NCBI GenBank assembly: GCA_040387495.1
Contig: JAZKDQ010000015.1
Span: 65,238-93,348 of the forward strand
Length of the DNA stretch: 28,111 nt
Source: Pseudomonadota bacterium
GTDB lineage: Bacteria > Pseudomonadota > Alphaproteobacteria > Paracaedibacterales > CAIOTO01
Reading direction: 5' to 3'
Shown piece after piece: positions 3,001 to 5,025 of the stretch (positions within the stretch are counted from its first letter, which is position 1; the number at the start of each line of letters is the position of its first letter). The position numbers were made by a program.

Positions 3001-5025
3001 TAATAATACACAGCAACAGAGTAATAATACACAGCAACAGAGTAATAATGCACAACAAATGCAACAAGATCTTTCTTTGAGTTTTGAAACGTATGCAAAT
3101 GCACACGTAATAAGTCCAATTAAGGGGAGTATAGTCTTTACTGGGTTTCTTCCATCATTTGGGCAAGTAGTCATTTTAAAACAAGATGATTTCTTCTGTG
3201 TGATGACAGGTCTTGGTGCAGTCCATTGTTTTCTGGGTGATACTTTATTGCCAGGCGAGCCAATTGGTCGCATGCCACCTGCCGATAAATCCATAAGAAC
3301 ATTTAAATTACGGATGGAATTGCATAAAGGTGGTCAACATCTTGATCCACGTCCATATTTAAGTGCGGTTGCGAGCACGTAAGAGATTGGAGACCACCAC
3401 AAAAGCTCGGGGCTAAGAATTGCATAAGAGTTGCAGGTATATGTATTGACACAAAGTCTAATAAACTTTATTATTAGACTTTGTGTATTAGCTAAAAAAT
3501 TAAGGTTTTTTAGTATAAATATGAGGCGCTTTCTTATGCGTTCACTAATTAAAATTAAAATAATAAAAATGAGGACTGAAATGAAATCACCAATACCTGT
3601 TTTTGAAGATCTTACACAGATGGATACATACGATCTTGTTACGTACTTACCGGATCAAACATATTTACCTGATTATATAAAAGCGCTGAACTTTCTTAAG
3701 GCATACAATGGTAGCCAGGGCACATTCAATGCCTATCGTCGTGAAGTTGAACGTTTGCTCCATTGGTGTACACTTGTAGCACAGAAATCATTGCAAGAAG
3801 TAAAGCGTGAAGATATAGAGTCGTTTATAGAATTTTGCCAGAAACCACCCACAGCATGGATTGGTGTTAACAGATTATCGCGTTTTATCACAATTGACGG
3901 AATGCGACTACCTAATCCCAAATGGCGACCTTTTGTTGTTACGATTCCAAAAGCAGCATATCAAGCTGGTGAGCGGCCAAACCCAAAAGATTTTGAACTT
4001 TCTCAAAGCGCTATTAAAGATATGTTTGCCATTCTTGGTTCTTTTTTTACTTTTTTACTTCAAGAAGAATATGTGTTTGTAAATCCCGTTGCGCTTATTC
4101 GCCAAAAAAGTAAATTCATTCGTACGGCACAAAACAAACCTAAAATCAGACGACTTTCTGATCGTCAATGGAGCTATGTAATAGCAACCGCTCAAGAAAT
4201 GGCTACTGTAAATCCCACATTACATGAGAGAACGCTCTTTATGATGTCCACTTTATATTCAATGTATTTACGTATATCAGAGCTTGGCGCCAGTAAACGC
4301 TGGAGTCCAGCTATGAATCATTTTTTTAAAGATAGCGACGAGAATTGGTGGTTTACGACTGTTGGGAAAGGCAATAAACAACGGCAAATTGCAGTGAGTG
4401 ATACGATGATAGAAGCCTTAAAAAGGTGGCGTCTATATTTAGGGTTGTCCCCCCTTCCCTCACGTGCTGACCAATCCCCCTTAATTACAAAATTACAGGG
4501 ATTTGGTGCAATTACGAATACGACATACCTTCGTCGTGTCATACAAACTTGTTTTGATCAAACAATCGCTAAGCTTAATCAAGATGGCTATGAAGAGGAT
4601 GCAGATTCACTGAAGGAAGCAACTGTTCACTGGCTTCGGCATACAGGAATATCAGATGATGTTAAACACAGACCACGTGAACATGTGCGGGATGATGCCG
4701 GGCATGGATCAGGGACTATTACAGACAAATATATCGATGTGGATTTAAAAGAGCGACATAAATCAGCTAAACACAAACTTATTCACGAGGATAATGGTTT
4801 ATCATAAATTAATTGGATTTTCAACGCTTCTTGTGCCCGTGATAGATGTTTACCACTTAAATTTTTTGCATAAAATGAAAATCTCAGTTTCTAAGAGGGT
4901 TTACCCTAATTTGTCTTTTTACCCTCAAAAAGGAGTATATTTTTGTAATATGGACATATCTATGTCTTCCCCTCTTGCATATAAAATGAACTATGCGTAA
5001 AGTAAATCAACTTCAGATTAATTAG

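Follow-up and report, generated by a model that had tools for sequence, protein, structure and literature searches.

A single tyrosine recombinase of the XerL family is probably the sole chromosome-dimer resolvase of the alphaproteobacterial genome studied here (G000; 1.66 Mb, 20 contigs, 99.92% complete), in which it would act at a palindrome upstream of its own gene. On the same reading, gene and site were acquired horizontally as a module that replaced XerC/XerD and their dif site. The locus lies in a window of 28,111 nucleotides, the whole stretch of DNA that was analysed, and its features are collected in Table 1 in window positions.

The initial annotation had reported one 423-aa tyrosine-recombinase frame at 3536-4807 that scored just above the Pfam cut-off, matched Phage_int_SAM_1 at 1.7e-6 and had orthologues 49-59% identical to it. 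Each of these points held: the protein reaches 27.8 bits against Phage_integrase (cut-off 27.1), the Phage_int_SAM_1 value came out the same, and the copies in relatives are 49-58% identical. Homologues begin at Met16 (window position 3581), which is preceded by GAGGA, so that the product is likely 408 aa long. The catalytic set R246, K278, H365, R368, H390 and Y399 (423-aa numbering) is intact, with at least 90% conservation of these residues in an alignment of 88 diverse family members, and its LRISEL and GKGNK motifs have aligned counterparts, LRVSEL and GKGRR, in the XerD of a congener. Against the models for XerC (TIGR02224) and XerD (TIGR02225) the protein scores 62.5 and 55.9 bits, below cut-offs of 335 and 330, and against the XerS model NF003462 it scores 23 bits (cut-off 267); by sequence it thus falls outside all three. 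The structure predicted from the 88-row alignment (pLDDT 93.7, pTM 0.87), which replaced an earlier model built from 14 close sequences (pLDDT 66.6), has the two-domain tyrosine-recombinase fold. Its best Foldseek matches in the PDB were XerH-difH (E 1e-8, TM 0.5-0.6), XerA, the Tn1549 integrase, Cre and XerD. Identity to XerH is ~15% in the structural alignment, which places the protein outside XerH at the sequence level, and no PDB sequence matched a profile of the 14-row alignment, even at E<=10.

The family to which the protein belongs emerged from a comparison with Legionellales. Over 410 aa and with one gap, it is 59% identical (77% positives) to CBUA0010 of the Coxiella burnetii plasmid pQpH1. 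At its start, the CBUA0010 sequence agrees with what Table S3 of PMC9765430 lists as XerL_Cb, so that CBUA0010 is XerL_Cb, and Y399 aligns with the Coxiella residue equivalent to Y389 in the 410-aa form of that paper; the Legionella pneumophila XerL of the same table shares long conserved blocks with our protein, as judged by eye. XerL was described in 2022 for Legionellales as their missing dimer-resolution system (Nicholson, Deecker and Ensminger, mBio; PMC9765430). That paper treats xerL as restricted to Legionellales, a restriction taken to suggest vertical inheritance; it names Lpg1867 as the XerL of L. pneumophila and places the C. burnetii gene on a plasmid, from which XerL resolves chromosome dimers too, and where a site adjoining xerL supports recombination. 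The XerL dif is described there as a perfect inverted repeat whose arms, of 10 and 12 bp, flank a short centre. Within the literature searched, XerL occurred as the name of a bacterial recombinase only in this paper, its preprint and one Legionella paper of 2024, and nothing joined Holosporales with a single-recombinase Xer/dif system or Paracaedibacter with XerD.

In a 54-row tree, the gene groups with that of 'Ca. Paracaedibacter symbiosus' (SH-aLRT 99) inside a 41-row clade (SH-aLRT 97) that holds the Legionella and Coxiella XerL. The copies of congeners are only 58% identical to it and fall in another clade, which makes the gene a xenologue. Judged by its sequence, the recombinase is a member of the XerL family, not of a new Xer family, and extends XerL to Alphaproteobacteria. 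The initial annotation had gone further, proposing a new single-recombinase Xer that replaced XerCD. The novelty of the type was not borne out, given the 59% identity to Coxiella XerL and the nesting within the Legionellales XerL clade. A takeover from XerCD is nevertheless the most likely course of events: the recombinase is the only one present, XerC, XerD and a classical dif were not found, the gene has its own palindromic site, in a spacer that in the closest relative contains a classical dif, and the type is anti-correlated with XerCD across relatives.

Table 1. Features of the xerL-type locus, in window positions.
Feature	Position	Strand	Remarks
M23-family peptidase gene, left neighbour (housekeeping context)	2285..3382	+	G001 orthologue directly upstream of dif and mreB
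Segment of ~1.5 kb (palindrome, xerL, short flanks)	3364..4915		G001 has a ~75-nt stretch with classical dif there; borders approximate
Sigma-70-like promoter (TTGACA, 17 nt, TATTAT; 11/12 matches)	3446..3474	+	Overlaps the palindrome
Perfect palindrome, 16-nt arms, 6-nt spacer: ACACAAAGTCTAATAA ACTTTA TTATTAGACTTTGTGT	3449..3486		Candidate XerL recombination site (dif)
xerL-type tyrosine recombinase gene	3581..4807	+	408 aa from Met16; longest frame 3536-4807, 423 aa
mreB, right neighbour	5035..6075	+	MreB 99% identical in G001

The location of the gene argues for such a takeover. Its closest relative, G001, carries XerCD together with a classical dif (AAATATTATAA TTTGTA TTATGGAAAAT; L125:1331-1358) in the spacer between the M23-peptidase gene and mreB, the XerD arm being that of the Rickettsia and Ehrlichia dif sites (PMC2731167, Table 1). 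In G000 the palindrome-plus-xerL module occupies this same spacer, and alignment of the two M23-mreB spacers defined the segment listed in Table 1; beyond mreB follow an ELM1-like gene, mreC, a 184-aa frame without a Pfam match, PBP2 and rodA. A search for leftover or hybrid dif halves at the borders of the module gave best matches of 15-17 out of 28 positions. The sequence TTGCATAA is common to both sides of the module and is too short to interpret. Metagenomic proteins 98% and 86% identical to it were found, whereas among metagenome contigs scanned for the palindrome no relative above 66% identity came with its flanks.

A module in this place might alternatively be a mobile-element unit (a Tn3 resolvase with its res site, a plasmid multimer-resolution system or a small integrated element) that landed here by chance and has no role in dimer resolution. 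The tyrosine-recombinase resolvases of Tn3-family transposons are of the TnpI type. A comparable arrangement is seen in G001 and G007, where XerL-like genes stand head to head with genes for DUF4158, the N-terminal domain of Tn3 transposases, and a palindrome lies in between; several relatives carry two or three XerL-type copies on short contigs; and the family is found on Coxiella plasmids, in plasmid-labelled Legionella records and, more distantly, on Pseudomonas plasmids. Given these Tn3-type neighbours and plasmid-borne members, a mobile-element role is natural for the XerL family, and the presence of the segment in G000 and its absence from the same spacer of G001, like the xenology of the gene to the copies of congeners, would fit such an origin. 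The segment in G000, however, carries no transposase, cargo or terminal repeats. It lies between the M23 peptidase gene and mreB, without notable flanking repeats, a transposon end or a nearby transposase, and the protein belongs to another, Legionellales-type clade than the Tn3-associated copies. The only Tn3-like homologue in the genome is 26% identical and sits on a different contig, so that the Tn3 transposase placed beside an orthologue in the initial annotation has its counterpart in G001 and G007 and none near the gene described here. Nor does the segment resemble an IMEX: it has no dif or hybrid dif flanks and carries its own recombinase. The contigs of four metagenome runs contained no joint that skips the module; the spacer in which the module lies contains dif in G001; and the module encodes the sole tyrosine recombinase of a genome in which RecA is present and XerCD and a classical dif were not found. 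Because the plasmid-borne XerL of Coxiella also resolves chromosome dimers (PMC9765430), a mobile origin is compatible with a housekeeping role, and we consider a chance landing without such a role unlikely.

The candidate site itself is a 38-bp palindrome with an ATAA-N6-TTAT core, 94 nt upstream of the xerL-type start. This perfect 16-6-16 palindrome is unique in the genome and ranks second in length among the 93 palindromes there that have a 6-nt spacer. Palindromes (arms of at least 9 nt, 6-nt spacer, at most 400 nt upstream) occur at 18 of 108 related loci, against ~2.3 expected from the rate in the remainder of these loci, and YTGTAA-N6-TTACAR stands ~100 nt upstream of all three same-genus copies. 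Both results run counter to the initial annotation, which had seen neither a dif-like site nor any conserved motif next to the gene. In its arms (GTCTAATAA), the G000 palindrome is unlike GTGATWA, the commonest half-site of the family, with ~2 mismatches per 7-nt half-site to GTGATAA; other XerL sites share its inner ATAA/TTAT core and its spacer of the CTTT type. GTGATWA-N6-TWATCAC has no match in G000, even with one mismatch allowed, and a weight matrix built from 18 other sites left the palindrome outside its genome-wide top 20 and singled out no alternative site. Because the matrix fails to rank the palindrome, what speaks for this site is how it is built and spaced, that it is unique and where it lies, and not the sequence of its arms. 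The palindrome was also considered as a terminator and rejected: the terminator scan did not call it, its arms have fewer G-C pairs than the rule of the scan requires, and no T-run follows.

Position relative to the replication terminus was examined by GC skew. On the contig that carries the locus, skew and gene orientation flip (from + to -) at window positions 22800..23600, ~20 kb from the palindrome and 4-5 kb before the contig ends; this is the only flip on the contig, cumulative skew is still rising at the palindrome, and the flip may mark the terminus of G000. Indirectly, a terminal position of the palindrome is favoured by the classical dif that G001 has in the same spacer. Equivalent sites in three other chromosomes, large or closed, lie at or near the local skew peak, at distances of 0-8 kb (G041), 19 kb (G042) and less than 3 kb (G364). 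In G041, the site is at 823.9 kb, and the peak falls in the block of 814-824 kb or, when resolved to 1 kb, at 832 kb (400-kb stretch centred on the site); in G042 they are at 303 and 322 kb (200-kb stretch centred on the site). G364, a closed alphaproteobacterial chromosome of 1.46 Mb with XerL and without XerCD, has a single exact GTGATTA-N6-TAATCAC palindrome at 498.0 kb, within the 495-500 kb peak block, the skew being weak outside the stretch examined. On contig C8 of G003, GC skew was too weak to read.

These sites also bear on whether the upstream palindrome is an operator only, with the true recombination site elsewhere or missing, or with chromosome dimers tolerated or avoided. Such a role would suit the overlap of the palindrome with the promoter match (promoter-like sites number 7 in the region against 6.9 in shuffles, so that this one stands out by its quality and position only), the departure of its arms from the family consensus, and the 76 kb that separate gene and site in G364. 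Yet G000 offers no better candidate: no other site resembles the family palindromes, whether as an exact or a one-mismatch consensus match, the top weight-matrix matches are not palindromic, and no other long palindrome has a T[AT]A inner core. The core of the palindrome next to the gene recurs nowhere else as an exact copy in the genomes of G041, G042, G043 and G434; in the first two of these, this palindrome is at the skew peak or close to it; and the plasmid site beside Coxiella xerL supports recombination (PMC9765430). We therefore give the operator-only reading little credence, and favour the palindrome as the site at which XerL acts.

Searches of the whole genome point to XerL as its only tyrosine recombinase. 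A six-frame search with PF00589 gave one match, the xerL-type gene; TIGR02224 and TIGR02225, at E<=10, recovered the same gene only (48.6 bits with the first, cut-off 335; 38.2 bits with the second, cut-off 330); and tblastn with XerC and XerD of the congener G002 against all of G000, again at E<=10, found no other credible match. The best genome-wide match to the 28-mer dif of G001 agrees at 21 of 28 positions, and matches to a loose dif pattern are no commoner than the control rate. Both RecA and FtsK are encoded, the latter with its gamma domain. The initial annotation was thus right that the genome has a single tyrosine recombinase, no canonical XerC/XerD and no canonical dif core, and that FtsK is present. 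Deletion scars of xerC and xerD were sought by synteny with G002, relative to which the gene order is too rearranged to read. That xerC, xerD and a classical dif exist on sequence missing from the 20-contig assembly, a concern raised in the initial annotation and in keeping with an assembly that is not closed, is very improbable, since completeness is 99.92%, three separate elements would all need to be absent, the spacer that holds dif in G001 is assembled and filled by the module, a contig from a second run within the same study spans the left junction and one of 185 nt, from a different study, the palindrome/xerL start, and the XerL type without XerCD recurs in five other genomes of the order.

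Among 41 genomes of the order, where members of one family are non-independent samples, 32 have a canonical XerCD pair and one of these the XerL type as well, while the pair is absent from nine, six of which have the XerL type; the family-wide split between canonical pairs and a ~430-aa type, noted in the initial annotation, was thereby reproduced. Five more alphaproteobacterial species carry the XerL type, and three of them likewise lack XerCD. In a sample of 401 species of Alphaproteobacteria the XerL type occurs in 7, all with genomes of 1.4-2.0 Mb, and the family is represented in free-living Gammaproteobacteria too.

We propose that two to four XerL subunits would occupy the two identical arms of the 38-bp palindrome and synapse the two copies of the site in a dimeric chromosome. 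Strand exchange over the 6-bp spacer, via the conserved R-K-H-R-H-Y active site, would then yield monomers at division, a process in which FtsK may have a part. Binding could also autoregulate xerL: because the palindrome overlaps the promoter of its gene, the protein probably represses its own synthesis. Palindrome and gene would form a self-contained module, presumably acquired horizontally from a Legionellales/Paracaedibacter-type lineage, that took over the spacer of the ancestral XerCD dif, with XerC, XerD and the classical dif lost since.

Compared with XerL/dif of Legionellales, the G000 system belongs to the same family (full-length identity of 59% to XerL_Cb, ~408 aa, catalytic tyrosine aligned), has one recombinase and neither XerC nor XerD beside it in the genome, and has as its candidate site a perfect inverted repeat with a short centre, the arms being 16 bp long here and 10 and 12 bp in the sites described in PMC9765430. 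On the Coxiella plasmid, too, the site adjoins the gene (GTGATTA CTTTGA TAATCAC, ~165 nt upstream; L018). It differs in its alphaproteobacterial host, in arms unlike the common GTGATWA half-site, and in that gene and site form one module at what appears to be the former XerCD dif locus, whereas they lie more than 400 kb apart in L. pneumophila. With XerS/difSL of streptococci and lactococci and XerH/difH of Helicobacter and Campylobacter it shares the use of one recombinase and a site beside or near the gene, an apparent module (PMC2731167; PMC5357621), and XerH/difH is the best structural match to the model. Neither family includes it at the sequence level, and their dif sites are only partly dyad-symmetric (PMC9765430). 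With XerC/XerD-dif it has in common the presumed task, the chemistry and the ATAA-N6-TTAT core found in both classical dif and the palindrome; it differs in having one protein instead of two, ~100 residues longer, and a fully symmetric site.

Collectively, our results indicate that the XerL family is wider and more mobile than reported, reaching into Alphaproteobacteria and free-living Gammaproteobacteria and often travelling with its site. XerL appears able to take the place of XerCD-dif at one and the same locus, even between members of a genus, and G000 offers a concrete, testable example in which a core system of chromosome maintenance was probably displaced by a non-orthologous one. Such replacement would explain the 'no Xer' results of tyrosine-recombinase screens in some small genomes. 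More tentatively, xerL and its palindrome might be a portable dimer-resolution cassette, carried as the resolvase/res pair of Tn3-type transposons and plasmids, that can settle in the terminus region at or beside the resident dif, makes XerCD and dif dispensable and is followed by their loss, which would have occurred several times, and with two or more XerL lineages, inside one small order of Alphaproteobacteria. If this possibility holds, single-recombinase Xer systems would arise by repeated domestication of mobile resolution modules, and not by descent.

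We found a single tyrosine recombinase gene and no XerC or XerD in the genome that holds the window, in agreement with the initial annotation. Six-frame searches with PF00589, TIGR02224 and TIGR02225 (E ≤ 10) returned no gene besides the xerL-type one, which was also the sole non-chance tblastn match to XerC and XerD from the congener G002 (24% identity, E 5e-3 and 5e-4). The assembly (1.66 Mb, 20 contigs) is 99.92% complete, and it encodes RecA and an FtsK whose 806-codon frame contains motor and gamma domains. The recombinase narrowly passes the Pfam Phage_integrase cut-off (27.8 versus 27.1 bits) and carries an N-terminal SAM-like domain, while matches to the NCBIfam XerC, XerD, XerA and XerS models are weak and far under their cut-offs. 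Because homologues start at Met16, which is preceded by GAGGA, the gene most likely begins there rather than at the head of the open frame.

Features of the recombinase locus (window coordinates)
Feature	Position	Strand	Remark
xerL-type recombinase, longest frame	3536-4807	+	open frame, 423 codons
xerL-type recombinase, most likely extent	3581-4807	+	408 aa from Met16
Perfect palindrome ACACAAAGTCTAATAA ACTTTA TTATTAGACTTTGTGT	3449-3486		candidate XerL site, 94 nt upstream of start codon
lpxK, gpmI, M23 peptidase	upstream of xerL		housekeeping genes
mreB, ELM1-like gene, mreC, PBP2, rodA	downstream of xerL		housekeeping genes
ELM1-like gene	6123-7301		between mreB and mreC; weak Mito_fiss_Elm1 (PF06258) match

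The decisive clue to the identity of this protein came from a tblastn search against plasmids, which returned a Coxiella burnetii plasmid tyrosine recombinase (58.8% identity over 97% of length), namely CBUA0010 on pQpH1. CBUA0010 opens with the residues that Table S3 of Nicholson et al. 2022 (PMC9765430) lists for XerL_Cb. By BLASTP the two proteins share 241 of 410 residues with one gap, and Tyr399 pairs with the Coxiella residue that is Y389 in the 410-aa numbering used there; a comparison by eye with the L. pneumophila XerL entry of Table S3 likewise revealed long common blocks. Conservation reaches 90% or more at R246, K278, H365, R368, H390 and Y399 among 88 diverse family members, and a structure model built from their alignment (pLDDT 93.7) matched, best first, XerH–difH, then XerA, Tn1549 integrase, Cre, lambda Int and XerD. 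The XerL_Cb identity, the conserved catalytic residues and the model together place the gene in the XerL family, so the proposal of a new Xer type does not hold. Chemically the protein is an ordinary tyrosine recombinase; biologically it is a notable case. PMC9765430 shows XerL (Lpg1867) to be necessary and sufficient for recombination at the palindromic Legionella dif, its loss to cause recA-dependent filamentation, and the Coxiella XerL and sites to be able to replace their Legionella counterparts.

Comparison with the closest relative, G001, indicated what the module of palindrome and xerL probably displaced. MreB is 99% identical between the two genomes, the M23 peptidase merely 65%, and both share the order gpmI, M23, mreB. 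In G001 the M23–mreB spacer is just 195 nt long and holds AAATATTATAA TTTGTA TTATGGAAAAT, the sole G001 match to a loose classical-dif pattern; its XerD arm equals the arms that Carnoy and Roten 2009 (PMC2731167, Table 1) give for Rickettsia prowazekii and Ehrlichia ruminantium. G001 encodes a canonical XerD (304 bits) and a XerC-like protein (229 bits). Homology between the genomes ends just short of the M23 stop codon and restarts ~120 nt before mreB, and in the spacer alignment ~1.5 kb containing the palindrome and xerL stands where G001 has its dif-bearing stretch. No classical dif was found in a genome-wide search of the XerL-bearing genome, where the best match to the G001 dif is 21/28. 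A 19-mer fitting the loose pattern occurs there at C1:66801-66819 and again at 68181-68199; two copies 1.4 kb apart point to a local repeat rather than to dif. The position of the module at the dif spacer of G001 is the strongest single argument that it may do the job of dif and XerCD. This co-location would put the region near the terminus in the genus.

As a check on the assembly, a second sequencing run of the same study yielded contigs that span window 3286-3536, and a 185-nt contig of another study spans 3414-3596, each with 0 differences; no joints bypassing the module were seen among contigs from four metagenome runs. In the loci of eight relatives (L125-L132), sequence upstream of mreB is conserved across the genus for ~80 nt, beyond which sequence and genes differ in every genome — a recurrent synteny breakpoint, as would be expected for a terminus/dif region. 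On the other side of mreB, the Elm1-like gene is present in this genome, G006 and G002, and mreC directly follows mreB in G001, G003, G004 and G005.

The palindrome itself ranks second in length among 93 in the genome (6-nt spacer, arms ≥ 10 nt); it is single-copy, and no other long one in this set has a T[AT]A inner core. A terminator scan did not call it, and it overlaps a sigma-70 match (TTGACA-17-TATTAT, 11/12). The longest, C14:20086-20125 (TTTATATAATCACCGGG TCGGTT CCCGGTGATTATATAAA), includes the family half-site GTGATTA/TAATCAC facing outward around a G+C-rich stem and may be just a terminator. Upstream sequence was usable at 108 of 111 related loci. A palindrome with a 6-nt spacer and arms ≥ 9 nt occurs in the 400 nt before the xerL-type gene at 18 of the 108, against ~2.3 expected from the background in the remainder of the loci (0.021 per 400 bp). 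Common half-sites are GTGATAA/GTGATTA, CCGGTAA and CTGTAA, often around a CTTTTA-like centre, and the three same-genus xerL-type copies share YTGTAA-N6-TTACAR ~100 nt upstream. GTGATTA CTTTGA TAATCAC precedes Coxiella xerL and agrees, by description alone, with the 30-nt gene-adjacent site in the text of PMC9765430; the closest species genome, G434, has GTGATAA TTTCCA TTATCAC 20 nt upstream. GTGATWA-N6-TWATCAC has no match in our genome, and a weight matrix of the other sites did not rank its palindrome high; judged from sequence, its arms would be a diverged variant of the family arms.

Positions relative to GC skew, read from parts of chromosomes, speak for XerL palindromes acting as dif, also in Alphaproteobacteria. 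In the 3.8-Mb chromosome of G041, the core of the gene-adjacent palindrome is single-copy at 823.9 kb; over the 400 kb examined, the maximum of cumulative skew falls in the 814-824 kb block, and at 832 kb when read in 1-kb steps. In a part-chromosome stretch of G042 the site lies at 303 kb, with skew climbing steadily up to 322 kb and then declining. The alphaproteobacterial G364 (one 1.46-Mb contig, XerL present, canonical XerCD absent) changes from plus to minus at ~460-510 kb in coarse sampling and peaks in the 495-500 kb block of a contiguous 365-604 kb stretch, though skew is weak elsewhere. At 498,022-498,051 lies TAAGTGTGATTA TAGAAA TAATCACACTTA, the sole exact GTGATTA-N6-TAATCAC match genome-wide and the only perfect palindrome in that stretch to combine arms ≥ 12 nt with a T[AT]A inner core. 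In the window, GC and AT skew change sign at 22800-23600, where genes turn from the + to the - strand; this only such flip on the contig, 20 kb off the palindrome and 4-5 kb from the contig end, may mark a candidate replication terminus.

A canonical pair (XerD match of at least 287 bits plus a second, XerC-like match) is present in 32 of 41 genomes of the order, only one of which, G001, also has the XerL type; XerL occurs in six of the nine without the pair (this genome, G003, G005, G007, G008 and G013), counts that are not independent because the genomes are related. Neither was found in G004, G006 and G033 (88%, 75% and 90% complete). The switch takes place within genera, with both states present in g1, in g2 and in g6. 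A further five species of Alphaproteobacteria with XerL comprise three without XerCD, one with the pair and one with a single XerD-like gene. G434 combines XerL (70% identical) and its adjacent exact palindrome with one XerD-like gene (305 bits) and no XerC-like partner above 200 bits, and may be an intermediate state of XerCD replacement.

In a quick-search tree of 54 rows (SH-aLRT support only), the protein clusters with metagenomic proteins and 'Ca. Paracaedibacter symbiosus' (99) within the Legionellales-type clade (97), and copies from relatives of its own genus and family fall into another clade (96). Because those congeneric copies are just 58% identical to it, versus 90-99% for MreB, the gene is taken as a separate acquisition. 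In G001 (L008, C15, 1-1500) and G007 (L010, C32, 1-1340), XerL-like genes lie head to head with genes for DUF4158, the domain at the N terminus of Tn3-family transposases, and in G001 the 170-nt spacer between the two genes holds a 9-nt-arm palindrome, AGCTTGTAA ATTGTA TTACAAGAT; the layout looks like transposon resolvase/res. Such linkage makes transposons and plasmids plausible vehicles of XerL. No transposase or plasmid-type genes occur near the module studied here, and the G003 copy adjoins yidC and a GTPase gene, a housekeeping setting.

The family reaches far beyond Legionellales: over 6000 of 8000 candidates scored match the recombinase, relatives are encoded at no fewer than 480 loci in species genomes, and the best 80 loci include Legionellales, Coxiellaceae, Berkiella, several alphaproteobacterial MAGs, Halieaceae, Pseudomonadales and Thiotrichales. 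In an even sample of Alphaproteobacteria, 7 of 401 species carry the type at E ≤ 1e-90, all with 1.4-2.0 Mb genomes. XerL also turns up in free-living Gammaproteobacteria whose genomes measure 4-6 Mb (Halieaceae, Halioxenophilus, Pseudomonadales; L055, L075, L088, L098), and the family is therefore not restricted to intracellular bacteria or reduced genomes. The gene described here encodes a single Xer recombinase of the XerL type in an alphaproteobacterium. It adds to a known kind; what is new is an alphaproteobacterial XerL with its own candidate palindromic site, apparently at the former position of classical dif.
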